From contig JBKJTP010000084.1 in NCBI GenBank assembly GCA_046590195.1, positions 1 through 56,169 of the forward strand: DNA of 56,169 bases, in the 5' to 3' direction. Both the position numbers and the translations under genes were made by a program. The notes under the pieces were generated by a model that searched no databases, was not told where the DNA came from, and saw only the letters and a list, made by a program, of their open reading frames with translations. The DNA is from Candidatus Kapaibacterium sp. GTDB taxonomy: Bacteria; Bacteroidota; Ignavibacteria; Palsa-1295. Below are positions 2 to 13,298 of this stretch, piece after piece. Position 1 is the first letter of the stretch. Each line of letters opens with the position of its first letter.

Positions 2-1285
2 ACAGTCTGGCACAATGATGCTACTAATCTCTGGTACATTTGGGATGGTTCGGATTTCGTTCTTGCCGAGCCAATGTATTACCACGAAGACCCTTATCCG
101 TCACCACGTCTTGCCGGCTTTTACTGGTACGACATCACAACCAGTCTACTCAAGCGTTGGAGTGGTACCGCATGGGTGACCACGGCGCACACCACAACTG
201 TGGTTGGTAATGTAATCGGTTCGTTCTGGTTCAATAGTGTTGACGATGAGTTATTTTCGTGGTCTGGTACTGCATGGGTGGCCTCTATTGGCCTTGCGTC
301 GATTGTGATGGTACCACCGACCCTCAGCACGGGTAGAAGCTACTTGTCGTTCTACACTCGCGATATTGGCTGTTCCTCTAGCATTGAGGTTGTATCCGGT
401 TCAACGCTCCTGTTGGCGCTCCTAACGCAGCCTGTCATCTTCACTGATCCTGTTAGTGGTGAAGACGGCAAGGTTGGTGGAACGCTAGCTAAGCAGCTTG
501 GTGTCGGTGATGACGGTAGTCCAGACGAACGCCGCACACTGCATAATGATATCCGTTCCATGCTTGGTCATCCTGTGATTCAGGTCGAATTGACAAAGGA
601 ACAATTGGACATTTGTGTTGACTTGGCGCTACGTGAACTCCGCAAGTATTCGTCATTCTCCTACAAGCGTGTGGTGTTCTTCCTCGACCTCAAGCCGAAC
701 CAGCAGACGTACCTAATGACCAATCGTTGTGTTGGCTTCAACAAGATTACCGGTATCAACTCCATCCATCGTTCTCGTGGCTTGGCGATGAGTTCCGCTT
801 CGATTGATGGTGACATGTTTACTTACGCTGCAATCCAGCGCCTGTACACCATGGGCACCTTCGACATGTTGACATACTATCTTGTTTCTGCCTACATGGA
901 AGAACTGGAAACGCTATTCGCTAATCGAATTATGTTCAACTGGAATGAGTTGGACCGTGAGCTTGGTATCTTCCAGAAGGTCGGTAGAAACGAGCGTGTG
1001 CTTATAGACGCCTTCATCGAGCGTACCGAACAGGACTTGATGATTGACCGCCAGACGGGCTTGTGGCTTCAGCGGTGGGCTCTGGCTGAGGCCAAGCGCA
1101 TCCTGTCGCAGAGCCGTGGCAAGTTCCAGACTCTGCCGGGTCCGAACGGCTCCACGACTCTCAATGCGCAAGACCTACAGCAGCAGGCTCAGGACGAGAT
1201 GGAAAAGCTACGTGAACAACTTGAAGACGGAAGCATGCAGAATTATACTGGTCTTGGCTTAAGAGCGCATCTGATTATGGGGTAA
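2..1285 (+). CDS. neck protein, T4 gp13-like; 5' end runs off the window; N-terminal Trp-rich repeat extension
   Basis: The frame is open from nt 2, with no stop before the listed ATG at 74. The C-terminal ~270 aa match remembered T4 gp13 blocks: LGHPVIQVELTKEQLDICVDLALRELRKY vs T4 [29 protein letters not shown], plus the C-terminal WLQRWALAEAKRIL...EKLREQLE block. The N-terminus has 3 copies of a [FL]W[YF]x(10-14)Wx(2-4)W[VI] motif. Confidence 0.65.
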   Translation, partial: TVWHNDATNLWYIWDGSDFVLAEPMYYHEDPYPSPRLAGFYWYDITTSLLKRWSGTAWVTTAHTTTVVGNVIGSFWFNSVDDELFSWSGTAWVASIGLASIVMVPPTLSTGRSYLSFYTRDIGCSSSIEVVSGSTLLLALLTQPVIFTDPVSGEDGKVGGTLAKQLGVGDDGSPDERRTLHNDIRSMLGHPVIQVELTKEQLDICVDLALRELRKYSSFSYKRVVFFLDLKPNQQTYLMTNRCVGFNKITGINSIHRSRGLAMSSASIDGDMFTYAAIQRLYTMGTFDMLTYYLVSAYMEELETLFANRIMFNWNELDRELGIFQKVGRNERVLIDAFIERTEQDLMIDRQTGLWLQRWALAEAKRILSQSRGKFQTLPGPNGSTTLNAQDLQQQAQDEMEKLREQLEDGSMQNYTGLGLRAHLIMG

Positions 1286-1304
1286 TGCGCACATTTTGCA
1301 CGTA

Positions 1305-1338
1305 GGTTCTCCTAGACCATAAATAGTCTAGGAGAACC
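1305..1338 (+). promoter_or_regulatory. 13-bp perfect hairpin with CATAAATA in the loop; the 3' arm contains the SD of the downstream endonuclease gene; may also terminate the neck gene
   Basis: GGTTCTCCTAGAC (1305-1317), loop CATAAATA (1318-1325), GTCTAGGAGAACC (1326-1338), then TTT and ATG at 1342. AGGAGA lies within the 3' arm. Confidence 0.6.
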
Positions 1339-1341
1339 TTT

Positions 1342-2160
1342 ATGCCAGTACGAAAAACCACAGAAGCCTTTATCATAGAGTCTAGGATGGTTCATGGTAG
1401 TAAATACGATTATTCCCGTGTTGTATATAAGAACAATAGCTCCAAGATCGAAATAGGATGCCCGTCGCATGGATACTATTTCGCTATTGCTAAACGGCAT
1501 TCTCATCATGAGCAAGGATGTCCGATTTGTGGAATAGGAGCGTTGAATCATAAGAACCACTCGCTTAATAACAGAAAAACGCAGGAGCAATTCTTACTGG
1601 ATGCCGAAAGAGTCCATGGTGATAAATTCGATTACAGCTTATGTCGTTACGAGGGCGGTAAGAAAAAGATGCCGATTATCTGTAGAACTCATGGCATTTT
1701 TTATCAGCACAGTGAGAACCATATTAATGCCGGGACCGGATGTCTAAAGTGTTACCGTGAGAGTAGAATAGGAAAGAAAGCGGTAAGCGGATATTGTGCT
1801 GCGTATTTTGCATCTTATCCAGAAAGACGAGGAATCCCGGCTTTGGTATACGTGGCAAGGATGCAACATCTAAACGATGACTTCATTAAGATTGGAATAA
1901 CCACTAAAAACTCAGTTAAGCAACGATTTTATTATCATGCCAAACATGGTACTGTGATTACGCCCTTGATAGAAAAACAAGAAACTCTATATGACGCCTT
2001 TGTGGTGGAAACTGAAATATTATTGGCGCTCGCATCTCATCGTTATTATCCGAATAGGAAATTCGCAGGCTACACTGAATGTGTCAAGATAAACGCTGAG
2101 TCACTATCCCTGTTGTCCGGCTACTTCGGTATAAATATACAAGAACTGATAGTGAACTGA
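1342..2160 (+). CDS. free-standing homing-endonuclease-like protein: two Zn-ribbon DNA-binding repeats plus a T5orf172 / GIY-YIG-superfamily-like C-terminal domain
   Basis: Two repeats VHGxK[YF]DYS...C..HG...GC..C. The C-terminus ALVYVARM..FIKIGIT...VKQRF....E..LL.....R....F.GYTEC resembles the T5orf172 pattern. Visibly AT-richer than its flanks. Sits between gp13-like and gp14-like genes that are adjacent in T4. Confidence 0.55.
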   Translation: MPVRKTTEAFIIESRMVHGSKYDYSRVVYKNNSSKIEIGCPSHGYYFAIAKRHSHHEQGCPICGIGALNHKNHSLNNRKTQEQFLLDAERVHGDKFDYSLCRYEGGKKKMPIICRTHGIFYQHSENHINAGTGCLKCYRESRIGKKAVSGYCAAYFASYPERRGIPALVYVARMQHLNDDFIKIGITTKNSVKQRFYYHAKHGTVITPLIEKQETLYDAFVVETEILLALASHRYYPNRKFAGYTECVKINAESLSLLSGYFGINIQELIVN

Positions 2161-2165
2161 GATAA

Positions 2166-3794
2166 ATGGATACCACAACCCCTAATTGCATCTCTTGCGG
2201 ACCTGAAGACGAAAATCCGCTCAACATCTCCAACTGCCCACCAGAAGTGACGGTTGAGACGCCCGAGACCGCCTGCGATTTCTGGGAACTGGTCAACAGT
2301 CCGGAAGCCTGCATCATTGGCGGGTTCATAGACGAATCGCTGACCATAGGTGGCGCTCCCCTGAATGTCTATAAGCTACTCGGTGTCCACGAACAGGATT
2401 TGTTACAGGACGTGTCCGGGCTTGGAGCGCCTATTTCGGGTGGCGACCACCCGAGCTTCCCGGCTAGCAACGCCTTCGATACCTACATTACGGAATGGCA
2501 CTCTCGTCAGACCGGTGTCGAGGTTACGACTTCGGCTTACATCGGCTACGACTTCGGTCCGATTAAGCTGAACAACGGTCGTCTTCGTTACGGAATCGAC
2601 ACCTTCATCAAGCATGACATCGCTGCCTTCCGTATCAAGCAGGGCTGCGAACCAGAAAATCGTGTCACCAAGGTTCGCGTGGAACGTTCCGCTGATGGTG
2701 TGAAGTGGTATGGTGTCACCATCCTAGACTTACAGGATTGTGATGGCCTCATCACTGTCTACTTCAACAAAAGTGTTCCGTCCCGCTACTGGCGTCTCCG
2801 TCCGACCGCATTCAATGGCGGCACGAATGACTTCTGGGCCGTACAGGCATTCCAGCTAATGGAATATGAAGCCACCAACATCAGTAACATTCAGGACAAG
2901 ATTTTCATGGAGAATCGCGACCGCGATTACAATGAATTTCCAATCCGGATGAAGTGTGCGTACACCCCACAGGATGTGGTCGCCAACCAGATGAAGTTCG
3001 GCTTCATGGGTGAGGAACAATACATTCTCGAAGTCTCCTTTGCACAGGCCGTTGCTAAGCTAGGACGCCCGTTTGTCATCGGTGACATTATACAGCTACC
3101 AAGCGAAACCCAGTACACACCGCTACTCAAGGCCAAGAACAAGTACCTTGAGGTCATGGACGTGGGTTGGAGTACGAACGGGTTCACCCCGACGTGGGTA
3201 CCGACCATGCAGCGTCTGATTGCTAAGCCGGCGTTTGCCTCGCAAGAAACACAGAAGGTCATGGGTAAGCTGACAGGTTCAGTGGACACCAGCGGCCTGT
3301 TTGATGTAGACGACGGAAACGCCGCTAAATATCAGGATTATTCGGACGTATCGCAGGCTATCAAGGCTGAGGCAAACACCAAGGTACCGCAAGACGGTGC
3401 CGACTACGCGAACATTCCCGTTCTTTCTGATGCGCTAATCAATTATGGCGCAGAAAGAAATCTAGACCTAACCAAACTGTCACGTCGTCGCCATCCACAT
3501 GGTGTTGACGCTATGCCACCAAACGGGTTACCCTTCACCGAGGGTGATGTTCTTCCGGATAGCCCAAAGGACCAAGCATACCATCGCCTCACCTACACAT
3601 CTGTTGGTAAGGGAATTCCAGCGCGTCTATATCGTTACTCTGCGGCCAAGCGACTGTGGATTTTCCTAGAGACCGACCAACGCTACCGTATGAAGAATAC
3701 GCGTTCGCAACTGGAAGAATTCAAGAATGGTAACCATACCGGTCGTGCGGTGCCGGCAGATAACGTTGACGACGAACTGGCGAAGGACGTATAA
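2166..3794 (+). CDS. neck protein, T4 gp14-like core with an N-terminal discoidin (F5/8 type C)-like domain
   Basis: WHSRQTG..AYIGYDFG...FRIKQG...KVRVERSADGVKWYGV...SRYWRLRP..WAVQAFQL fits a galactose-binding-like/discoidin pattern. Downstream, RPFVIGDIIQLPSE...YLEVMDVGW resembles the T4 gp14 block GDLIYFPMDNSLFEINWVE. Position follows the gp13-like gene. Confidence 0.45.
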   Translation: MDTTTPNCISCGPEDENPLNISNCPPEVTVETPETACDFWELVNSPEACIIGGFIDESLTIGGAPLNVYKLLGVHEQDLLQDVSGLGAPISGGDHPSFPASNAFDTYITEWHSRQTGVEVTTSAYIGYDFGPIKLNNGRLRYGIDTFIKHDIAAFRIKQGCEPENRVTKVRVERSADGVKWYGVTILDLQDCDGLITVYFNKSVPSRYWRLRPTAFNGGTNDFWAVQAFQLMEYEATNISNIQDKIFMENRDRDYNEFPIRMKCAYTPQDVVANQMKFGFMGEEQYILEVSFAQAVAKLGRPFVIGDIIQLPSETQYTPLLKAKNKYLEVMDVGWSTNGFTPTWVPTMQRLIAKPAFASQETQKVMGKLTGSVDTSGLFDVDDGNAAKYQDYSDVSQAIKAEANTKVPQDGADYANIPVLSDALINYGAERNLDLTKLSRRRHPHGVDAMPPNGLPFTEGDVLPDSPKDQAYHRLTYTSVGKGIPARLYRYSAAKRLWIFLETDQRYRMKNTRSQLEEFKNGNHTGRAVPADNVDDELAKDV

Positions 3795-3815
3795 TCTTCG
3801 CCACGCGGAGATTGT

Positions 3816-5477
3816 ATGAATTCAAACGAACAAAAACTCATCATTGATAATCTATTGTCATCGGCCGAGCTTTATGCCCGATGCGCCGGCATTGTCGAGG
3901 GTGAGTATTTCGATCCGGAATACCAGAATGTAATTAATTACATTAAGACGTATACCGACAAGTATGGCGCAACGCCAGACTTCGACCGCGTGAACGCCAA
4001 GTTCGATCTTGGCTTCAAGAAGCGCGCTGTAACTTTACCTGAAATCAAGGAAAACTGCGACTCGATAGAGCTATTCTGTCAGCAGCAGGCTCTATCTGCG
4101 GCTGTTCTAGCCGCTCTGGAAGACATCGAATCGGGCAACCTAGGGGCGATGAAGGCCCGTATCGACAAGGCATCCCTTATATCCCTTGAAAAGGATATGG
4201 GTGTCGAGATGTTCGAGAACCCGGAAGCCTATCTAATCAGTCTTCTAGAAAACGACATTTACTACTCCACCGGAATCAAGGGTCTCGACGACTATCTTGA
4301 CGGTGGTCTTGCTCGTAAGCAGCTTACACTTTTCTCCGCCAACTCCGGCGGTGGTAAGTCTGTAATGCTATCAAATCTCGGCGTCAACTACGCCCTGATT
4401 CATGGTATGAACGTGCTGTACATCTCGCTGGAACTTCCAGAGACGATGATTTACAAGCGCAATGCTTTCATTATGTCGGGCGTAAGCGCGAAGGAGTGGA
4501 AGGAAAAGCTCATCTCCATCGCGGCCAAGATCAACTCCATCAAGGCGGATGGTGCAGGCAGCTACCGAGTCAAGCGTCTACCGACCGGCTCTAACACCAA
4601 CGATATCCGTTCTTACCTGAAACAGTACGAACTGACGTATGGTTTCTGCCCCGATGTAATCATCGTCGATTACCTCGATGTTATGAGCCCGAACGAGGGC
4701 ACCAAGAATCTATCAGTATCCGAGCAGGACAAGCAAAAGGCTGAACAGCTTACACAGCTTCTGCATGACTACAATGCTATCGGCCTGTCCGCTTCACAGC
4801 AGAACCGCGAAGCCATAACAATGTCAGACCCTAATCAGGGCGTCATTGCCGGCGGTTTGACCAAGGTCAATGCAGTAGACAATTACGTCTCATTGTACAT
4901 GTCCCCAGAGCTTAGAGCCAAGGGTCAGTTTCTGATTTTCTTTCTCAAGACGCGATCATCAGATGGTGTAGGTAAGAAAACCATGCTCTCATTCGATAAC
5001 TCATGCCTGAGAATGGGTGACTTCGACGGGGGTGGCATGAGTTCTATTGCTGAATCCGCAAAGAAGCGAAAAAAGAAGGCAGACCTTGATAAGGCATTAG
5101 GTGTTTCCTTAACTGAACAAATTGAAGGATTACCCGGTGCCGAACCTGCTACTACACCCACACCAAGGCTGGACAAATTCGAGGAAAAGCTGGACAATAG
5201 CGTCACTGTAACTCGAACTGCAACAAAGCGAGATAATGTTGCGGACGTAGGTAAGCTACTCAAGGATTCCAAGAAGACGATCAAGCAGAAAACTGCTCTC
5301 GACCATATGGATGAAGAAGAGCAGATTACCAGCTACGGTAAGGGTACGATTCCACAACAGCAAGCAGTAACTAATCCGGAAACTGGAAAGGTACTTGACG
5401 ATGAGACGGTTGAGTTCATTGAAAAGAACGAACTGGATAAGGGCGCAGTAGAATTCATAATGAGTTTCATGGAGTAA
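3816..5477 (+). CDS. DnaB-family replicative DNA helicase (T4 gp41-like) with a ~150-aa charged C-terminal extension
   Basis: Walker A SANSGGGKSVML, Walker B VIIVDYLDVM, SASQQNREA motif. Confidence 0.85.
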   Translation: MNSNEQKLIIDNLLSSAELYARCAGIVEGEYFDPEYQNVINYIKTYTDKYGATPDFDRVNAKFDLGFKKRAVTLPEIKENCDSIELFCQQQALSAAVLAALEDIESGNLGAMKARIDKASLISLEKDMGVEMFENPEAYLISLLENDIYYSTGIKGLDDYLDGGLARKQLTLFSANSGGGKSVMLSNLGVNYALIHGMNVLYISLELPETMIYKRNAFIMSGVSAKEWKEKLISIAAKINSIKADGAGSYRVKRLPTGSNTNDIRSYLKQYELTYGFCPDVIIVDYLDVMSPNEGTKNLSVSEQDKQKAEQLTQLLHDYNAIGLSASQQNREAITMSDPNQGVIAGGLTKVNAVDNYVSLYMSPELRAKGQFLIFFLKTRSSDGVGKKTMLSFDNSCLRMGDFDGGGMSSIAESAKKRKKKADLDKALGVSLTEQIEGLPGAEPATTPTPRLDKFEEKLDNSVTVTRTATKRDNVADVGKLLKDSKKTIKQKTALDHMDEEEQITSYGKGTIPQQQAVTNPETGKVLDDETVEFIEKNELDKGAVEFIMSFME

Positions 5478-5478
5478 T

Positions 5479-5718
5479 ATGACAGTAAATAAGACAGTTA
5501 CATTCAAGGTCGGTGAGAAAACAGTAGTCATCTCCGAGCTAGCTGCTGAGCTTCGAGAGCGTTTCGCAACGCTGGATACATTTCGTCAACGCCAGTCTGA
5601 TGCGATGGCCGACCTAGAAATGGCAACCATGGCCGTGGCGGTTCTAACCAACCAGTTACAGAAGGCTATTCAAACTAAATTCACTAAGCCAGAGACCGGT
5701 AAGAACGAAAATGAGTAA
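5479..5718 (+). CDS. hypothetical protein
   Basis: ORF tightly coupled to the helicase stop (TAATATG). No motif recognised. Confidence 0.5.
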   Translation: MTVNKTVTFKVGEKTVVISELAAELRERFATLDTFRQRQSDAMADLEMATMAVAVLTNQLQKAIQTKFTKPETGKNENE

Positions 5719-5974
5719 TGAAATCAAGGAGTTGCTGGATACTTACGAAGAGTACACCAAGCTATTCGCTACGCAGGTTTTCAGTCCTGTTGTATGGAAT
5801 GAACAAACCGGCTGTGAGATAGAAGAATACTTTGGATATGTAGCTTGTTGTGAAGTCCGGCTATACGATTTTTCAACGTGGTATGAACATACTCACAGTA
5901 AAGAGTATCCGAAGGGAATCGACTGGGACTTCTATAAGACCCACAAGTTCTCGCTCTTGTCCTACCACTCATAA
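5711..5974 (+). CDS. hypothetical protein
   Basis: ORF overlapping the previous stop by 8 nt. No motif recognised. Confidence 0.5.
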   Translation: MSNEIKELLDTYEEYTKLFATQVFSPVVWNEQTGCEIEEYFGYVACCEVRLYDFSTWYEHTHSKEYPKGIDWDFYKTHKFSLLSYHS

Positions 5975-5993
5975 ATACCGTATTACTCGGTAT
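5970..5993 (+). promoter_or_regulatory. late-promoter-like CATAAATA followed by a 6-bp hairpin upstream of the ATG at 5999
   Basis: CATAAATA at 5970-5977 embeds the TAA stop. ATACCG (5975-5980) pairs with CGGTAT (5988-5993). Confidence 0.4.
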
Positions 5994-5998
5994 TCACC

Positions 5999-6442
5999 AT
6001 GAAAAAGGCTATCGTAACCATACAGAAGAAAATTGCACATCCGCTTGAAGATGTCTTTGACATCGAGCCCGAGACTACTGAAGTCATTCGTCATGAGCAG
6101 AAGACCGAACTAGCAGTCGTTGCTGAGTACGATGAGAAAGACCAAGAAATCGAAGAGGCGATGCAGGAAGTGTACGATAAAGCTATGTCTGGCTACGAGC
6201 GTATACAAGACGAGTGTGAGGATATCGAAGGTCGGTATCTTCCTCGTATGATGGAAGTCGGTGTCCAACATCTGAAAATGGCGCTGGACGCCGCCGAAGC
6301 CAAGGCTAAGATTAAGGAATTGAAAGACAAACTCAGCGGAAAGGCAAAGGCCGGACCGCAGACTGTCAACAATAACTTGGTCATCAGTCGAGAAGAACTG
6401 CTTCGAACAATGTTCGAGAACGGAGATGATGAAAACAAGTAA
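5999..6442 (+). CDS. hypothetical acidic coiled-coil protein
   Basis: E/K/D-rich helical-looking ORF. No catalytic motif. Confidence 0.55.
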   Translation: MKKAIVTIQKKIAHPLEDVFDIEPETTEVIRHEQKTELAVVAEYDEKDQEIEEAMQEVYDKAMSGYERIQDECEDIEGRYLPRMMEVGVQHLKMALDAAEAKAKIKELKDKLSGKAKAGPQTVNNNLVISREELLRTMFENGDDENK

Positions 6443-7013
6443 CAAGTATTCTTGTCGCTTGAAACTGTCCGACGCTGGAAATGACTTCGGATATGCGGAG
6501 CATTGTTCCTATCTGGTGGCCGTGTTCAAGGTTAATCCTCCGCCATCAATGGCAGAAGATTACAGCTTAATCGCAGACGATTTAGGTGTTCCCACACATC
6601 ATAGTGTCAGGTCGGCGGTAAACTATCTCTACTCGTATTTCGCGTATCAACTCAATCAACGTTTCGCAGACGACGGTAGTCCCGAACACCTCTTCATATT
6701 CATCACTAATTTTGTAAATGGTCTCACTGATTTTTGTAAGAATGAGACCACGGAACGACTAGATATAGAGTCGATCAACTATCAGCAACTATTCGAAGAC
6801 TTGAAATTATTCAAGCTCCGTGCTATTGTTGGTGGTAGTAAAGAGCCGCATATTCGCATTGTTGACACTACTACAAAGCGGTTCATTTTCCAGATACGAA
6901 TAACAAAAACAAAAAGCTGGACTGCACTAACCAAAGTTGACCATAACTTCGAGCTTCATCTGGAAGTCGGCATAACGTTGGAAACAGTTCTGAATCCAAC
7001 GGAGCCGCAATAG
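6426..7013 (+). CDS. hypothetical protein
   Basis: ORF overlapping the previous gene by 17 nt. No motif recognised. Confidence 0.5.
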   Translation: MMKTSNKYSCRLKLSDAGNDFGYAEHCSYLVAVFKVNPPPSMAEDYSLIADDLGVPTHHSVRSAVNYLYSYFAYQLNQRFADDGSPEHLFIFITNFVNGLTDFCKNETTERLDIESINYQQLFEDLKLFKLRAIVGGSKEPHIRIVDTTTKRFIFQIRITKTKSWTALTKVDHNFELHLEVGITLETVLNPTEPQ

Positions 7014-7014
7014 C

Positions 7015-8793
7015 ATGTACGAACATTTGGAACTTCTGAATAGTAAGAAAACATCAACCGAAGAATTCATTGCACAGTACAAGGCTGCACACAAAGCCAA
7101 GCTGTCCAAGGAGCAGTTCTCCAAGCTTCTAGGCATCATGCCCGAGTCCATGCGTCGTCGTCGCTGGGCTGTCAGTAAGTCCAGCAGTGTTATGCTGCCG
7201 GAGTTGAAGTCCAGTGCCGATCAGGCTGAGCCGGACCACATTCCGCAGGATAAGCTTGAGAGCTACTACACCAATTTACAGGAACTAACCAAGAACGCCG
7301 CTGGCCGTTCCGAGATGAAGAACATCTCCGGCTTTAACCGTTATGTCATTACATCGGCGCAGAACAACACCCCGGTGCATGAGAAGTTCCTGTACACTCT
7401 GAACAACTACTGTGAGGTCAATGACGCTTGTCTGGTGGTCATTCCCTACCGCTACAAGAACCCGACCTCCGTCTTCACTCCGACGCAGGAATCCGAAGAA
7501 ATCTGGAATCCTCGCCTGACGCCATACATCATCGACGAGATGACTCGCCTGTCGAATAACTTGGTGCTTCTAGCCAATGTTAAAATCCAACCTACGGCCA
7601 TTCAGCCGCTATCCGGGTTCGACGGCTACACCGGTCTCGATTCCGCCATTCTAGGACACCCGAAGATTCAGCTTGTTACCGTCCCGACCCCAAGCCAGCA
7701 TCTTCCGAAGATTCTAGCCACCACGGGCTCCGTAACGCTGCCTAACTATACGGACAGCAAGGCCGGCTGGAAGGGTGAGTTCCATCATAGTCTCGCTGCA
7801 ATAGTCGTTGAAATCGACGCAGACGGTGACACGCACATCCGTCACATTCACGCTGACGATGTTACCGGGCACTTCTACGACCTCGACAAGTGCTACACCC
7901 CGACCGAAGTTACAGACGGCCACCGTGCCGCTGCACTGGTCACGGGCGACACCCATGCCGAGTTCATGGACGATAAGGTTAAGGCCGCGACGTATACGAA
8001 TGTAGACTCCATGTGCAGCCTACTACGTCCGGAGGTTATCGTCCGTCATGACGTGGAAGACTTCTACGCTCGTAACCATCATCACCGTGGCAATGACCTC
8101 ATTGCATTCGGCAAGCATCACTTCGGTCGTGACAATGTAGAAGAATCGCTACAGATTACAGCGAACTTCATTGACGAAACTACCTACCCGGAGAGCGTCA
8201 ACATCATCGTCAAGTCTAATCATGATGAGGCGTTGGACCGTTGGCTTCGTGAGGCCGAGCCAAAGTACGACCAAGAAAATGCCGTACTGTATTACTACAT
8301 GAAGTTCCATCAGATGCGTAATGTTCGCATGACGGAAACGGGATTTAGCAGCATCGACCCGTTCGAGTTCTGGTGTCATAATCCATTAGACCAGAAGGGT
8401 CTACGTAACAAGGCGCAGACCAAGTTCCTGAAGCGCGATGAGTCGTTCCGCGTCTCTGACGTGGAGTTAGGTTTCCATGGCGACATCGGTCCGAACGGAG
8501 CGCGGGGCAGCATCAAGTCCTTCGCCAAGATAGGTCCGAAGACCATCATCGGTCATAGCCATTCTCCGGGTATCCACGAGGGTTGCTATCAGGTCGGCGT
8601 CAGTGCCAAGCTCAACCTCGAATACGCTTCAGGTCCAAGCTCGTGGTCGCACACGCACTGCATTGTCTATCCGGATGGCTCGCGTACACTGGTCCACGTA
8701 ATCAATGGCAAGTGGCGCACCGCTGGCACGGTACCGCAGGATGACAAGGGTAAGGTCCGAGTAAAGTTCATCGACGCTATTGACGCAGAATAA
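7015..8793 (+). CDS. calcineurin-like metallophosphoesterase-domain protein with a ~300-aa unknown N-terminal region
   Basis: The ordered metallophosphoesterase motif set is visible: TGDTH (DxH), HDVEDF (GDxxD-like), KSNHDE (GNHD/E), GFHGD, GHSHSPG (GHxH). Confidence 0.55.
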   Translation: MYEHLELLNSKKTSTEEFIAQYKAAHKAKLSKEQFSKLLGIMPESMRRRRWAVSKSSSVMLPELKSSADQAEPDHIPQDKLESYYTNLQELTKNAAGRSEMKNISGFNRYVITSAQNNTPVHEKFLYTLNNYCEVNDACLVVIPYRYKNPTSVFTPTQESEEIWNPRLTPYIIDEMTRLSNNLVLLANVKIQPTAIQPLSGFDGYTGLDSAILGHPKIQLVTVPTPSQHLPKILATTGSVTLPNYTDSKAGWKGEFHHSLAAIVVEIDADGDTHIRHIHADDVTGHFYDLDKCYTPTEVTDGHRAAALVTGDTHAEFMDDKVKAATYTNVDSMCSLLRPEVIVRHDVEDFYARNHHHRGNDLIAFGKHHFGRDNVEESLQITANFIDETTYPESVNIIVKSNHDEALDRWLREAEPKYDQENAVLYYYMKFHQMRNVRMTETGFSSIDPFEFWCHNPLDQKGLRNKAQTKFLKRDESFRVSDVELGFHGDIGPNGARGSIKSFAKIGPKTIIGHSHSPGIHEGCYQVGVSAKLNLEYASGPSSWSHTHCIVYPDGSRTLVHVINGKWRTAGTVPQDDKGKVRVKFIDAIDAE

Positions 8794-9275
8794 TGACTAC
8801 GAAATTCACTGACACGCAGAAGGAAATGCTTGCCCATTTCAAGGCTTGCAAGGGTCGCGGAGTTTATAACCAGACCGACCGCCGTGCCGGTTGTACTACA
8901 TTTCTAGCTATTCAGGCAATCGCCGAGGTGCTTCGCACCGGTCAGGACGTAGCATTTGTAACAGACTTACCCAAGGAGTTTTTCACCGACATCATTGTTA
9001 AGTCCGCTGAGAAATGGTTCATGATGAAGGCAACAAGGTCGCCACATCAGTATGTGCAAATTGGAGACCGCCGCATAGACCTTCTGCATGTCGGATTTGA
9101 TATAGACCGTATCATGGGGAAGACTTACGGTGCAGCGTTTGCTGAGATTTGGACAAACGCTAATCATGATAGTCCTCTCAGATGGAAACGTTTACATGCG
9201 TTCGAGGCGATACAGAGTTCTCTCTATGGATTGAACTTTGAAGATAAGGTCTTCTATAGACTATTCGGTCACTAA
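8793..9275 (+). CDS. hypothetical protein, possibly a degenerate P-loop
   Basis: DRRAGCTTFLAIQAI loosely resembles the ARQTGKTE..AFLL Walker A region of TerL. Weak. Confidence 0.45.
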   Translation: MTTKFTDTQKEMLAHFKACKGRGVYNQTDRRAGCTTFLAIQAIAEVLRTGQDVAFVTDLPKEFFTDIIVKSAEKWFMMKATRSPHQYVQIGDRRIDLLHVGFDIDRIMGKTYGAAFAEIWTNANHDSPLRWKRLHAFEAIQSSLYGLNFEDKVFYRLFGH

Positions 9276-9296
9276 GCGACACTCGAAAAAAGCCTT

Positions 9297-9330
9297 CATA
9301 AATAATGCCTTAGACAACTAGGGCATTATT
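9297..9330 (+). promoter_or_regulatory. CATAAATA box overlapping a 9-bp hairpin plus T-run, immediately upstream of the ATG at 9334
   Basis: CATAAATA at 9297-9304. AATAATGCC (9301-9309) pairs with GGCATTATT (9322-9330), followed by TTT and ATG. Confidence 0.5.
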
Positions 9331-9333
9331 TTT

Positions 9334-10101
9334 ATGGCTGATTATACTCAAGAGATTATTGAAGAGTGTCACGCTTGCGAGCGCAACCCGCTGTATTTCA
9401 TAGACAAATACGTTAAAATTCAAAGCAGTCGCGGTCAGATACCACTTACGCTATATCCAGCGCAGGCCAATTGCGTTGAGTCATTCGGCAGAGAGCCGCG
9501 AGTCGTCATCGCTACCCAACGCCAGCTTGGGATGACTTCTGTATTCACGGCCTATCTGCTGTGGTACTTGATATTCAATAAGGACAAGACTGCCGGTCTT
9601 GTCCTTCCTCGACTGCAAATGGTGCATGAATACATTCGCATATTCTATGAGATGTATGAATTATTGCCGGACTGGATGCGTCCGGGGATTGAAGAGCGTA
9701 CCAAGTCCTCTATTCGACTGAGCAACAACGCTCGTCTTATCACCTCTACGGCCGGGTCGAATACATTCAAAGGTAGGACTATTAACCTCTTGGTATGGGA
9801 CTTGGTTGGCTTTGGTCGGTATACCGATGAAGAATGCTTCCTCAACGAAATCTATCCTTGCATGTCCATCCCGGCTGGACAAATCATTATGTGTGGGAGT
9901 GGTCGCCCAGACGATACGCCAAACTTCTTAACGCAGGTTTACCTATCCGGACTGGTCGGTGGAACTTTCTATCCTATTCAATTGCGTTGGTGGGATAACC
10001 CATCGCTGACCCGCAAGTGGAAAGCAAAGCAGATAGAAGTTATCGGTGAAGAGCAATTCAAGTGGGAATACGAGTCTATTATCCTACCGTCTCGCCACTA
10101 A
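9334..10101 (+). CDS. terminase large-subunit ATPase-domain paralogue with degenerate Walker A and B motifs
   Basis: Collinear with TerL residues ~30-266. NPLYFIDKYV/DPAYFARNYV; LYPAQ/LYPYQ; ATQRQLGMTS vs SARQTGKTE (Lys lost); ELLPDWMRPGI/EELPNWLKPGI; LLVWDLVGF vs LLYCDEFAF (Glu lost); ends at WEYESI, aligned to QEYE|C, which is the intein insertion point. Confidence 0.6.
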   Translation: MADYTQEIIEECHACERNPLYFIDKYVKIQSSRGQIPLTLYPAQANCVESFGREPRVVIATQRQLGMTSVFTAYLLWYLIFNKDKTAGLVLPRLQMVHEYIRIFYEMYELLPDWMRPGIEERTKSSIRLSNNARLITSTAGSNTFKGRTINLLVWDLVGFGRYTDEECFLNEIYPCMSIPAGQIIMCGSGRPDDTPNFLTQVYLSGLVGGTFYPIQLRWWDNPSLTRKWKAKQIEVIGEEQFKWEYESIILPSRH

Positions 10102-10110
10102 GAGTGCCTC

Positions 10111-11112
10111 ATGGCTAAGAAAAACCCACGCCTAAAGAAATCCGGGACTGTAGAAGAATACACCCCGGAAATGATTGCTGAAATCCGCAAGTGCAAACTT
10201 GACCCGGCGTATTTCGCACGCAATTACGTCATGATTAAGCATGCCAAGCGAGGCAAGATTAAGTTCGCTCTCTATCCGTATCAGGAAGAGATGCTTCAGA
10301 TGTACAAGGACAATCGCTACAACATCATCTTGTCCGCTCGCCAGACCGGTAAGACCGAAACCACCTGTGCCTTCCTACTGTGGTTCGCTATCTTCCATTC
10401 CGACAAGACCATCCTTGTCGTATCCAACAAGTCCTCCAACGCCAAGGAAATGATTGGTAAGATTCAGTATGCCTACGAAGAGCTACCGAACTGGCTGAAG
10501 CCGGGTATCGACGCCGATAGCTGGAACAAGCACGAGTGCAAGTTCGAAAACAAGTCCCGCATCATCGCTCAGGGTACATCTACAGACTCTGGTCGTGGTC
10601 TATCCATCTCTCTACTATACTGCGACGAATTCGCATTCGTCCGGCCGCACATTCAGGCCGAGTTCTGGGACTCCATCTCTCCTACACTGGCGACCGGTGG
10701 TGCGTGTATCATTTCCTCTACGCCGAACGGTGACAGTAACCTGTTCGCTGAACTATGGCGTAAGGCAACGCTGGGCGGGCTGTCTGAAGATGATGCGCCG
10801 TTCAAGTCCAAGCACGTTCCATGGGATGCTCCGCCGGGCCGTGACGAGAAGTTCAAGCGTCAGCAGATTGCCATCCTTGGTGAGCGTAAGTGGCGTCAGG
10901 AGTACGAGTGTGTAACCGGTGACACTATCGTCACGGTTAGGAACAAGGAAACTGGTGAAATAGAGAATCTTGCTATCGCTGAACTTAAGATGCGAATTCT
11001 TATAAATAATCTCCATGAATCGGAGAATATAGTATGTCATGTGTCTACAAACTCACCAGAGCAGATGGTCTTGAATATATCGGGATTACGGTCAATCTGT
11101 CGAAAAGATTGA
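10111..11112 (+). CDS. terL: terminase large subunit, N-terminal ATPase fragment (N-extein, 266 aa) fused to a short N-intein and a read-through tail
   Basis: Walker A SARQTGKTE, Walker B LLYCDEFAF, coupling motif SSTPNG. At Cys267 (nt 10909) the sequence switches to the intein block A pattern CVTGDTIVTV. Confidence 0.85.
   Translation: MAKKNPRLKKSGTVEEYTPEMIAEIRKCKLDPAYFARNYVMIKHAKRGKIKFALYPYQEEMLQMYKDNRYNIILSARQTGKTETTCAFLLWFAIFHSDKTILVVSNKSSNAKEMIGKIQYAYEELPNWLKPGIDADSWNKHECKFENKSRIIAQGTSTDSGRGLSISLLYCDEFAFVRPHIQAEFWDSISPTLATGGACIISSTPNGDSNLFAELWRKATLGGLSEDDAPFKSKHVPWDAPPGRDEKFKRQQIAILGERKWRQEYECVTGDTIVTVRNKETGEIENLAIAELKMRILINNLHESENIVCHVSTNSPEQMVLNISGLRSICRKD
10909..10989 (+). other. 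N-intein fragment (~27 aa, block A only)
   Basis: CVTGDTIVTVRNKETGEIENLAIAELK. Block B (TxxH) is absent here and appears in the downstream ORF. Confidence 0.6.
11001..11008 (+). promoter_or_regulatory. exact T4 late-promoter consensus TATAAATA upstream of the GIY-YIG gene
   Basis: TATAAATA at 11001-11008, followed by the short hairpin TCTCC/GGAGA that contains the SD, then ATG at 11034. Confidence 0.5.
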
Positions 11113-11675
11113 GTGGGCATCGGCGATCAAGACGATTCGCCGATTACCAAATTACTAATGTTGAAATACTATTCACCGGGACGTATGACGAGTGTGATGC
11201 ACTAGAAGAAGGCTACATTACGCAATACGACACCTTTTACAAGGGGTTGAATATGACCAACCGTGGGAAGGGTCGTAATCTTTCGAGCAAGTTCAATACC
11301 TTCGGATACAAATTTAGTGAGAGTAGTCGCAAGAAAATGTCCGAGAAGTCAAAAGCTAGAACAGATCGAAAGACGGGACACAAACATAGTGATGAGGTCA
11401 AGAGACATTGGAGTGATATCAGGCGCGGGAAGGTCTGGGGTCCAATTAAGGTAGACGTTCAGACCCTACTATCTCAATGGGGTGAGTTCGCCCCATCGTT
11501 AGCTGATATGGAGTCCATGGTGGTCTACCGAGATGATAAGGTGTGGTTTAAGAATGGTAGGGAGTTTTCTTATCCAAAGGGTAAACTATCACTGTTCAAA
11601 AGGTTGAAAAGTGTGGAATACGGTGTAACTCCGGAAGCCATCAAAAGGATAATTGTAGATGAACAGCTTGTATGA
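11034..11675 (+). CDS. GIY-YIG homing endonuclease with NUMOD3-like repeats, lying between the two TerL/intein halves
   Basis: CVYKLTRADGLEYIGIT..LSKRLSGHR, E..YI, NMTNRGKG, then G[YH]K[FH]S[ED]..[KR]K.. repeats. A different frame from both TerL fragments; overlaps their ends by 79 and 17 nt. Confidence 0.85.
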   Translation: MSCVYKLTRADGLEYIGITVNLSKRLSGHRRSRRFADYQITNVEILFTGTYDECDALEEGYITQYDTFYKGLNMTNRGKGRNLSSKFNTFGYKFSESSRKKMSEKSKARTDRKTGHKHSDEVKRHWSDIRRGKVWGPIKVDVQTLLSQWGEFAPSLADMESMVVYRDDKVWFKNGREFSYPKGKLSLFKRLKSVEYGVTPEAIKRIIVDEQLV

Positions 11676-11970
11676 AATTCTGACCGAAAATGGTTTTAGA
11701 GACTTTATGACCGTCACTTCAAAGATGACGCCGGGCTACTGTGTCATCACTCTTACCGATGGTGTTGTGGTTAAGTGTACCCAGAGTCACCGATTCAAAG
11801 TAGGGGAGGAATTCGTCGAAGCCCGCGACCTCAAGCTTTCAGACAAGCTGGCACCGACCGGGGTTGGCGTATCGGCCATTGAATACGTTACGGATGAAGT
11901 TGAAGTTTTTGATGTAGTTAATGTAGATGATGGTAATCATTATATCACCAACGGTATAACATCACATAAT
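11659..11970 (+). other. C-intein fragment (104 aa, blocks B, F, G)
   Basis: See the TerL C fragment above. The terminal His-Asn occupies residues 103-104 and Cys is at +1. Confidence 0.7.
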
Positions 11971-12747
11971 TGTGACTTCCTGTCCTCTGACGGTGGCCTC
12001 ATGGATTCTTACGTCATGGGTAGCATCCAAAAGGAAGTCGAGATTATGACTCCTACATTCGTCATTGAGGATGAGGGCGAATTGTACAAATTCTACGCCA
12101 AGATTAATCCGCTATCTACCTACATCATCGGCATAGACCCGGCGACCGGTTCCGGTGTGGATTACAGTGTAATACAATGCTTTGAATTCCCGTCGATGAA
12201 TCAGGTCTTCGAGTATCGTAGTAACGTAATGCGACCGGAAAGTATCTACAAGGTCGTAAAAAAACTAATAGCCTTCATTTCCCAGACCGGTGCGGTGGTA
12301 TACTTCTCGGCTGAGAACAACGGTGTCGGCCAGTCCATTATTTCATTGTACCTGTCCGACGAAACGCCAGCCCCGGCAACCTTCGTATCCGAGGACGGTA
12401 AGGACAAGTACGGCTTCTTCACCAGTCCTCGAAGCAAGATTCGATGCTGTGTCAAGATGAAGAACATGATTGAGAACCGGACCATTAAGCTATCCTCCGA
12501 AACCATGGTCAAGGAGCTAAAGAGCTATGTCCGTAAGGCCGGCTCGTATTGCGCTCAGATTGGTGCTACCGACGACTGCATTGCGGCCTTCCTAATTGTT
12601 ATACGCATCATCGAAGAGATTGCGACGTATGACGAAAAGGCGTACCATATGATGTATCAGTTCGAAGAGCCGGGAGCATGGAAGGATGAGGGTCATCCGG
12701 AGCCGGATTACGGCTACACTATTCCAGTTGAAGCGATGCGCGGATAA
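11659..12747 (+). CDS. terL: terminase large subunit, C-terminal nuclease fragment (C-extein, 258 aa) preceded by a 104-aa C-intein
   Basis: Intein block B LTDGVVVKCTQSHRF, block F VEVFDVVNVDDGNHYITNG, block G ITSHN followed by the +1 Cys (TGT at 11971). The extein then continues CDFLSSDGG... with the RNaseH-like nuclease pattern IIGIDPATGSG. Confidence 0.85.
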   Translation: MNSLYEILTENGFRDFMTVTSKMTPGYCVITLTDGVVVKCTQSHRFKVGEEFVEARDLKLSDKLAPTGVGVSAIEYVTDEVEVFDVVNVDDGNHYITNGITSHNCDFLSSDGGLMDSYVMGSIQKEVEIMTPTFVIEDEGELYKFYAKINPLSTYIIGIDPATGSGVDYSVIQCFEFPSMNQVFEYRSNVMRPESIYKVVKKLIAFISQTGAVVYFSAENNGVGQSIISLYLSDETPAPATFVSEDGKDKYGFFTSPRSKIRCCVKMKNMIENRTIKLSSETMVKELKSYVRKAGSYCAQIGATDDCIAAFLIVIRIIEEIATYDEKAYHMMYQFEEPGAWKDEGHPEPDYGYTIPVEAMRG

Positions 12748-12755
12748 ATAGAAAC

Positions 12756-13298
12756 ATGACTAAGAAAATGCTATCCGTTGACATCGAAGACCTCCTAACC
12801 GAGTCCTCAACCGTTCATCAGTTGAAGTCCAATACCAAGGTTTTCTTTGGTCCCGAGCGTGAACGCAAAGCTGGACAGGTCCAGCTTACGAACGTCGAGT
12901 ACGTTCCGGCCGTTGCTAACGGAATGCTGATAGTAAAGTCCAAGACGCGTAGCTCTGACAAGACCTACGAGACAACCATCCAATTCTCCAAGGTTAAGTT
13001 CGTCAAGCCGGATACGCAGTATGCAGTGCCGGTTGCTACAGGTCAGGAAGAGATGCATATCATGCCGCTGAAGGCTCGTGAGAACGACGTACAGGTGCAT
13101 TGCACTTGCATGGACTTCTACTGGCGCTTCGCTATGCACAATGACCAGAACGATAGCCTCATCGGTAAGCCACCGGCACCCTACGTCAAGAAGACGGACC
13201 GCCCACCTCTGAATCCTGACCGGGTGCCGGGCGCTTGTAAGCACATAGACAAATTAACACAATATCTGTCCATGGAAAGGATATTGAAGCAGGCTTGA
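12756..13298 (+). CDS. SWIM-type zinc-finger protein (function unknown)
   Basis: HCTCMDFYWRF...(long spacer)...GACKHI fits CxC...CxH. GATAAATA at 12743-12750 precedes it. Confidence 0.4.
   Translation: MTKKMLSVDIEDLLTESSTVHQLKSNTKVFFGPERERKAGQVQLTNVEYVPAVANGMLIVKSKTRSSDKTYETTIQFSKVKFVKPDTQYAVPVATGQEEMHIMPLKARENDVQVHCTCMDFYWRFAMHNDQNDSLIGKPPAPYVKKTDRPPLNPDRVPGACKHIDKLTQYLSMERILKQA

Follow-up and report, generated by a model that had tools for sequence, protein, structure and literature searches.

The window analysed here, 56,169 nucleotides of DNA filed under Candidatus Kapaibacterium sp. (contig JBKJTP010000084.1), is a fragment of a jumbo phage. Its terL, the gene for the large terminase subunit TerL, is directly preceded on the same strand by the subject of this report, an open reading frame (ORF) at 9334-10101. 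This ORF encodes a whole T4-type large-terminase ATPase domain, both subdomains included, as a separate gene that ends at the hinge between the ATPase and nuclease domains. Aligned with active terminases, the protein is without three elements required for hydrolysing ATP and for coupling: the Walker A Lys, the catalytic Glu and motif III. It belongs to a stand-alone, catalytically dead, terL-linked family that is essentially undescribed and in which annotations vary between "hypothetical", "large terminase protein" and "terminase small subunit". The DNA comes from a new phage. It groups by TerL similarity with the Xanthomonas/Stenotrophomonas jumbo phages XacN1, Xoo-sp13, CM1 and RAS14 (53-57% identity), and a megablast search of positions 8700-12800 against 50,697 phage records gave zero matches.

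A terminase ATPase domain encoded as a separate gene

9334-10101, forward strand: stand-alone paralogue of the TerL ATPase domain (ATG start, 255 aa)

A BLASTP comparison of this ORF with the adjoining TerL N-terminal ORF (10111-11112) gives 77/256 identities (30%), 127 bits and E 2e-39, in a colinear match that spans paralogue residues 3-249, from the N-terminus through the motif that reads WEYES in the paralogue and QEYEC in TerL. Such similarity is far above chance, and the ORF is a true paralogue of the adjoining ATPase domain. Profile searches agree: phrog_5989, phrog_36964 and phrog_2 (all "terminase large subunit") match it with E values from 1e-41 to 9e-17, phrog_5989 being the best at E 1e-41, and the Protein Data Bank (PDB) chains of T4 gp17 match at E 3e-16. 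The Pfam model Terminase_6N (PF03237) reaches 15.8 bits, under its 22-bit cut-off. For the nuclease domain, Terminase_6C, the Pfam search finds no match, and the paralogue is without a nuclease/translocation domain.

The catalytic motifs can be read off the same alignment. At Walker A the paralogue has QRQLGMTS where TerL has ARQTGKTE, so that Met67 occupies the position of the Lys, as it does in the orthologue from L001 (a Logan contig, the closest relative found). At Walker B, LLVWDLVGF stands against LLYCDEFAF, with the Asp retained and the catalytic Glu replaced by Leu157, and the coupling motif (motif III) is degenerate, CGSGRP against SSTPNG. The Walker B pair of T4 is D255-E256, and its motif III spans T285-T287, for which this clade has STPNG. 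What the paralogue shares with a large terminase is thus homology and the ATPase fold; the Walker A Lys, the catalytic Glu, motif III and the nuclease domain are missing. An earlier note on this DNA, made from the letters alone, had aligned the ORF block for block with the N-terminal extein (N-extein) of TerL, had called the Walker A Lys and the Walker B Glu lost, and had taken the protein for a terminase-ATPase homologue. The BLASTP match, the aligned motifs and the profile hits bear it out on all three.

An AlphaFold2 model of the paralogue, built from a 64-sequence alignment, has a mean pLDDT (predicted local distance difference test) of 94.5 and a predicted template-modelling (TM) score of 0.92. 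The top Foldseek matches of the model are 2O0J/2O0H, the crystallised T4 gp17 ATPase domain (query-normalised TM score 0.89-0.90, root-mean-square deviation 2.0 A, ~262 columns). The paralogue is thereby predicted to have the ASCE (additional strand, catalytic E)/Rossmann ATPase-domain fold with subdomains I and II. It resembles the T4 gp17 ATPase domain in fold (TM 0.9) and in extent (the crystallised N360 ATPase domain), and retains the adenine-binding Gln, the P-loop Arg-Gln-x-Gly, the Gly of the RG motif and the structural core. It differs in being a separate gene and in lacking the nuclease/translocase domain along with the three catalytic elements named above. Projected onto T4 gp17, the paralogue runs from about residue 101, has its WEYES on FRQEHTAAF (348-356) and stops at about residue 360. 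The crystallised ATPase domain of T4 gp17 also finishes at residue ~360, where a hinge joins it to the nuclease domain (PMC9958956).

The end point of the paralogue deserves attention, since the terL that follows is a fractured gene, made up of the N-extein with an intein N-fragment, a GIY-YIG/NUMOD3 ORF, and an intein C-fragment with the nuclease domain.

10102-10110, forward strand: spacer from the paralogue stop to the terL ATG (9 nt; the spacing in L001 is also 9 nt)
10111-10908, forward strand: TerL N-extein, the active ATPase domain (GKT, DE and STPNG intact; 96% identical to L001 TerL)
10909-11112, forward strand: intein N-terminal fragment with a stop codon at its end (from colinearity with the uninterrupted L001 TerL, QEYE|C...|CDFLSS)
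11034-11675, forward strand: free-standing GIY-YIG/NUMOD3 homing-endonuclease-like ORF between the TerL halves (Pfam GIY-YIG E 1.5e-5, NUMOD3 E 7.6e-5)
11659-12747, forward strand: intein C-terminal fragment (11659-11970) and the TerL C-extein with the nuclease domain (11971-12747) (Terminase_6C E 6e-7; L001 TerL alignment)

This layout resembles the split-intein plus free-standing-endonuclease arrangement known from metagenomes. The intein starts at Cys267 of the TerL ORF (nt 10909). With WEYES aligned to QEYEC, the paralogue ends 7 residues beyond the position of Cys267, the first C-extein residue, so the earlier observation that it stops within a few residues of the intein site is real. What brings the two positions together is solely that each falls on the conserved motif with which the ATPase domain ends, at the boundary with the nuclease domain; all 40 short members of the family described below stop within a few residues of one alignment column. 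L001 has a 255-aa orthologue (54% identity) directly before an uninterrupted 524-aa terL, and the paralogue is therefore unrelated to the fracture of terL. Co-occurrence with a split TerL in related phages, which had been put forward as a check, is not what is found: the paralogue stands beside an uninterrupted terL in L001 and 12 other loci. Of the proposal that the ORF is an inactive pseudo-ATPase partner or regulator of a trans-spliced TerL, the pseudo-ATPase working with TerL thus stays the best reading, and the tie to the split gene falls away. A read-through fusion of paralogue and TerL was considered as well, the two ORFs being in the same frame and 9 nt apart in both the window and L001, but they lie in different frames in 11 other loci and the shared frame is a coincidence.

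A family of short paralogues upstream of terL

A word-indexed protein search found a single orthologue, and the family emerged only in an exhaustive hidden Markov model (HMM) search seeded with two orthologues, which returned 5,708 proteins at E <= 0.001. Among the best 150 representatives, which define our family census, about 40 are 237-270 aa long. The window protein fits the family in its length (~240-270 aa), in consisting of the ATPase domain alone and in ending at the boundary motif E-[YF]-E-C-x-F; dozens of clusters at 50% identity share the length and the structural core residues.

The Walker A Lys is missing in 30 of the 40 aligned short members, replaced by any of nine residues (T, M, N, I, S, V, D, Q, G). 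In this set of 30, constraint is absent at the sites that correspond to T4 K166, E256, T287, P288, G290 and Q350 (at E256, for instance, D occurs in 13, N in 4, E in 4, and others in the rest). The adenine-binding Q143, the P-loop residues R162, Q163 and G165, G246 and the structural core are 93-100% conserved. The position of T4 R245 is also mostly kept, being basic in 25 of the 30 (R in 14, K in 11) and K146 in the window protein. In an HMM alignment it falls on the LRG of Thermus phage P74-26 TerL, which would be the published trans-acting arginine finger R139 if the residue numbering is as assumed.

Two sister paralogues, P0012 with GKS and P0008 with GNT at Walker A, are 42% identical and have the same synteny, and P0029, upstream of TerL in a different type of phage, retains both GKT and DE. 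The Walker A Lys has, as far as such comparisons tell, been lost repeatedly and independently, and the function of the paralogue should therefore need no ATP hydrolysis.

Genomic context is available for 16 lineages. In 14 of them a full or contig-truncated terL follows the paralogue directly on its strand, the gap being -14 to +49 nt (the window, L001, L041, L049, L042/43 [a 368-kb contig], L050, L051, L052, L047/48, L044, L054, L027-29, Xoo-sp13 and XaC1). The last two are isolates. In Xoo-sp13, gene 242 (Xoosp13_242), annotated "terminase small subunit", carries the sequences RESGTS and LLDVNGF and lies 19 nt upstream of terL. In XaC1, gene 353 (XaC1_353), annotated "large terminase protein", reads FRQAGTTT and IVDN, and its overlap with terL is 11 nt. 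Genes 16 and 17 of T4 overlap likewise, as paralogue and terL do in several relatives.

The Xanthomonas jumbo-phage genes XaC1_353/354, XbC2 ORF270/271 and Xoosp13_242 represent the same family in the same arrangement as in the window, but at only 23-25% identity to the window protein. The literature on inactive or paralogous terminases yielded one sentence on tandem terminase homologues (PMC11273794), according to which XaC1 and XbC2 lack a small terminase and possess "two large terminase homologs in tandem". Published records on the Xanthomonas members are silent on the loss of catalytic residues, the absent nuclease domain and the existence of a family. A scan of IMG/VR with paralogue patterns recovered genuine TerLs only (27-28% identity), and tblastn of three family members against isolate genomes returned, besides the query's own record (XaC1), only TerLs at ~26-35% identity; few cultured phages therefore carry the family. 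The result is a homologue of a very well-known protein family which, as a stand-alone, dead, terL-linked gene family, is essentially undescribed.

The paralogue evolves quickly beside a nearly invariant neighbour. Between the window and L001 it has a non-synonymous rate (dN) of 0.356, a synonymous rate (dS) of ~1.6, which is saturated, and dN/dS of ~0.23; the same comparison for the ATPase half of TerL (TerL-N) gives dN 0.023, dS 0.69 and dN/dS 0.034. Other syntenic genes with a computable ratio fall at 0.03-0.18, so that the paralogue's is the highest. At ~0.23 the ratio indicates that the paralogue is maintained by purifying selection, yet it ranks among the least constrained genes of the region. 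The pattern is repeated in L041, L049, L050 and L051, whose TerL-N is 84-90% identical to that of the window and whose upstream paralogues are only 28-36% identical. In a rough neighbour-joining tree (a crude inference) and a score matrix, the paralogues of the window, L001, L049 and Xoo-sp13 show no preference for their own TerL, and those of L042, L044 and L047 show a mild one. These results suggest an old duplication in the XacN1-like clade, and perhaps separate ones in the L044/L047 lineages. As a separate observation, the dS of 0.69 for TerL-N (10111-10908 against L001 10778-11575) is clearly below that of all neighbouring genes (0.9 to >3), which suggests that its codons are constrained or that the window phage and L001 exchanged the segment more recently.

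Probable expression with terL and possible roles

The late promoter consensus of phage T4 is TATAAATA, and a similar motif precedes the paralogue, along with a hairpin.

9297-9304, forward strand: late-promoter-like motif CATAAATA, 30 nt before the paralogue ATG (the L001 orthologue has AATAAATA at the same place)
9300-9331, forward strand: hairpin with a 14-bp stem and a 4-nt loop, then a T-run ending at the ATG; it overlaps the promoter-like motif

The core ATAAATA has 19 copies in the window where 6.2 are expected, a three-fold excess reached in 0 of 100 shuffles. Copies on the coding strand make up 17 of the 19, and ten copies on the forward strand lie 23-42 nt before ORF starts, including those of the small-terminase-like gene discussed below, the paralogue and the GIY-YIG ORF. 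The GIY-YIG ORF is preceded by TATAAATA at 11001-11008 and the small-terminase candidate by CATAAATA at 5970-5977. We regard CATAAATA at 9297-9304 as a putative late promoter. The terL of the window has no promoter-like motif of its own and begins 9 nt after the paralogue stop; paralogue and terL therefore most likely form one late transcription unit.

The hairpin has a predicted RNA folding free energy of -23.5 kcal/mol (z -6.85), and 0 of 200 shuffles were equally stable. It is kept nearly base for base in L001 (ATGCCTTAG-ACAA-CTAAGGCAT-TTTTT-ATG), where flanking coding DNA is ~64% identical, so the motif-plus-hairpin element that the earlier note had placed before the paralogue holds up. 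A scan for consensus terminators did not flag it. T4 gene e offers a precedent for a hairpin that masks read-through transcripts, and this one could be a terminator or a translational mask of that kind, leaving open the late transcripts that start within its 5' arm. Motifs of the form [T/C]ATAAATA, at 19 sites, are spread over positions 1319-50112 of the window, several of them in or before hairpins (e.g. 1310-1336, 5971-5995 and 9297-9331).

We give about an even chance to the reading that the paralogue is a late-expressed, non-catalytic accessory partner or regulator of TerL, working by a mechanism that we infer as follows. Late transcription of the paralogue would start at its own TATAAATA-like promoter and give an mRNA shared with terL, and the protein would act through the ATPase-domain surfaces that make TerL-TerL contacts, and possibly contacts with the portal or the small terminase subunit (TerS). 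There it might modulate terminase assembly or the firing of the ATPase, for example by holding TerL in check before docking; alternatively it might complete the active site of a neighbouring subunit through its retained basic "finger" residue. That it associates with TerL at all is suggested by a single line of support, the linkage of the genes.

Non-catalytic paralogous subunits are well known in P-loop ATPase machines, as in the alpha subunit of F1-ATPase and the delta/delta-prime subunits of clamp loaders. The likeness is that of a paralogue of the catalytic subunit that has kept the fold, given up hydrolysis and is encoded next to the catalytic subunit, and in most family members the residue pointing into the neighbour's active site is basic. 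The terminase paralogue differs in being dispensable in close relatives and fast-evolving, and it is only a proposed member of the TerL ring or of any complex.

Several results weigh against a partner of TerL. The non-synonymous rate of the paralogue is ~15 times that of TerL-N (dN 0.356 vs 0.023), and paralogue identity drops to 28-54% between phages that share 84-96% of TerL-N, which is unusual for a motor subunit constrained by its interfaces. The finger position of the window protein holds Lys, not Arg, and its match to the trans-acting finger of P74-26 depends on an HMM alignment and an assumed residue numbering. Two family members (L045 and L046) are not beside terL, and no paralogue is found beside terL in XacN1, RAS14 and L030. 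In L032 the paralogue is a 93-aa remnant (SRQIGTST) beside an IS607-type serine recombinase/TnpB insertion, the upstream ORF of L031 is highly diverged with a weak match to the family (E 1.4e-7, Walker A region), and the counterpart in L033/L034 is frameshifted. Such patchiness suggests a function that is helpful but dispensable.

Several of these same features would suit a decoy in phage-host conflict, in which a dead TerL ATPase domain titrates or blinds host sensors that target TerL (Avs-type), satellites or competing phages. Avs-type STAND NTPases bind the terminase fold, and the Avs3-terminase complex 8DGC is among the Foldseek neighbours of the paralogue model, which keeps the TerL fold with high predicted confidence. 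Extreme divergence beside a near-invariant TerL (28-54% vs 84-96% identity), the highest dN/dS among syntenic genes with a computable ratio, and patchy presence with decay in close relatives could all be expected of it; divergence, patchiness and a retained fold are typical of accessory arms-race genes. The contacts of Avs3 with TerL, however, involve two active sites, that of the ATPase and that of the nuclease, and both are missing in the paralogue. No defence or anti-defence homology was found for the protein, the tight translational linkage to terL and the putative late promoter suit a packaging partner better than an early anti-defence factor, and the idea is purely inferential. We consider it unlikely, yet the leading rival of the partner reading.

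A takeover of all or part of the TerS role, either DNA recognition or stimulation of the TerL ATPase, would explain why the paralogue occupies the classical TerS position. Both that position immediately upstream of terL and the overlap with terL in relatives mimic T4 genes 16/17, the Xoo-sp13 member is annotated "terminase small subunit", and no TerS was found by the authors in XaC1/XbC2, with their tandem large-terminase homologues (PMC11273794). The main biochemical effect of T4 gp16 is to stimulate the gp17 ATPase (PMC9958956), which a finger-donating paralogue could copy, and regulation of the TerL ATPase is conceivable for both proteins. The paralogue nonetheless lacks any sequence or fold similarity to TerS (T4 gp16; phrog_735/phrog_445): its predicted fold is a Rossmann-type ATPase and not the helix-turn-helix plus coiled-coil oligomerisation architecture, and no DNA-binding motif was detected in it. 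The same genome has a TerS candidate of its own.

5999-6442, forward strand: gp16-type TerS candidate (phrog_445 "terminase small subunit", E 8.9e-14, full length)

T4 gp16 matches the same profile at E 5.5e-15. Syntenic homologues of the candidate, for which the Pfam search gives no match, occur in L001, L042 and L031, so that a gp16-related protein accompanies the paralogue in relatives that carry it. The suggestion that the paralogue substitutes for TerS had started from the statement that no TerS was recognised, a premise that this ORF overturns, and we judge the TerS role improbable.

That the paralogue is a functionless relic, left over from an old tandem duplication or from the fracturing of terL, is very improbable: its lost catalytic motifs, its fast divergence, the decay product in L032 and the frameshifted distant relative in L033/34 are outweighed by a 255-codon frame that is intact in both the window and L001 despite 46% amino-acid divergence, the dN/dS of ~0.23, dozens of 50%-identity clusters with the same length and structural core residues, a very confident AlphaFold2 model, and a putative promoter and a hairpin conserved in L001. 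The earlier idea of a relic of the gene-fracturing recombination is refuted, given uninterrupted terL in relatives, the same dN/dS, the retained length and an end at the domain boundary throughout the family.

The terminase motor, among the best-studied molecular machines, is generally taken to comprise only TerL, TerS and the portal. Its motor domain recurs beside terL in many large phages as a conserved, probably co-expressed copy dead for hydrolysis, which points to an unrecognised regulator or subunit, or else to a decoy. Tentatively, and with distinctly less confidence than in an accessory partner as such, we raise the possibility of a dedicated dead TerL-ATPase subunit that arose repeatedly in T4-like jumbo phages and in some other myophages, either a part of the motor or a transient cap (a hetero-oligomeric terminase), or else a fast-evolving decoy that shields TerL from sensors or hijackers. 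Whether subunit or decoy, it would be a new, widespread class of terminase component, hidden by the labels "hypothetical", "small terminase" and "large terminase". Members so mislabelled can mislead TerL-based phylogenies and viral marker counts. The cultured phages Xoo-sp13 and XaC1 carry members, which makes the question directly testable.

Neighbouring genes and related loci

The TerS candidate lies ~3 kb upstream of terL. Between them are a 195-aa ORF, an A1-like gene, an orphan ORF (ORFan) and the paralogue.

7015-8793: T5 A1-like "DNA transfer" phosphoesterase gene (phrog_1745, E 5e-166)
8793-9275: ORFan of 160 aa, overlapping the stop of the A1-like gene (GC content at third codon positions 0.50, vs 0.65 in its neighbours)

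For ORF 8793-9275 a faint P-loop (DRRAGCTT) had been proposed, which is unsupported. The ORF has 0 homologues among 5.8 billion proteins, no Pfam or PHROG match and no match to the paralogue-family HMM even at E 10, and it is absent from L001. These null searches rule it out as a second P-loop paralogue.

Two ORFs of relatives that lie right after the A1-like gene, XacN1 ORF261 (L035 327-1112) and Xoosp13_247 (L036 343-1083), give weak matches to the paralogue HMM, at E 2e-4 and 3e-5 respectively and in the Walker A region only. The former has a second match, at E 4e-8, to the N-terminal part of the profile for the major capsid protein Gp23. Both may be more diverged relatives of the paralogue, or chance matches. 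XacN1 ORF256, which lies directly upstream of XacN1 terL and was considered as a family member, is unrelated.

In the broken L033/34 copy, DNA alignment shows a 9-nt deletion and a frameshift followed by a divergent 3' half. A group I intron was considered as the cause and set aside, since Rfam gave no match and the alignment shows the deletion and frameshift. The terL genes of these and other relatives have been invaded at further sites. In L032 (IMGVR_UViG_3300037796_000302, 815-8892) there is an intein within the A1-like gene and a large terL intein at another site (after PTIS). In the IMG/VR contigs L033/L034 (5992-8825) the break in terL comes around residue 172-184, not far from Walker B (LLYC|HHKDST...), and marks another independent insertion site.

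At the beginning of the window, a gene for a gp13-like neck protein (74-1285) continues beyond the window start, and the next ORF, at 1342-2160 (GC 0.41), encodes an HNH endonuclease. The HNH ORF is absent from L001, where the next structural gene directly follows gp13.

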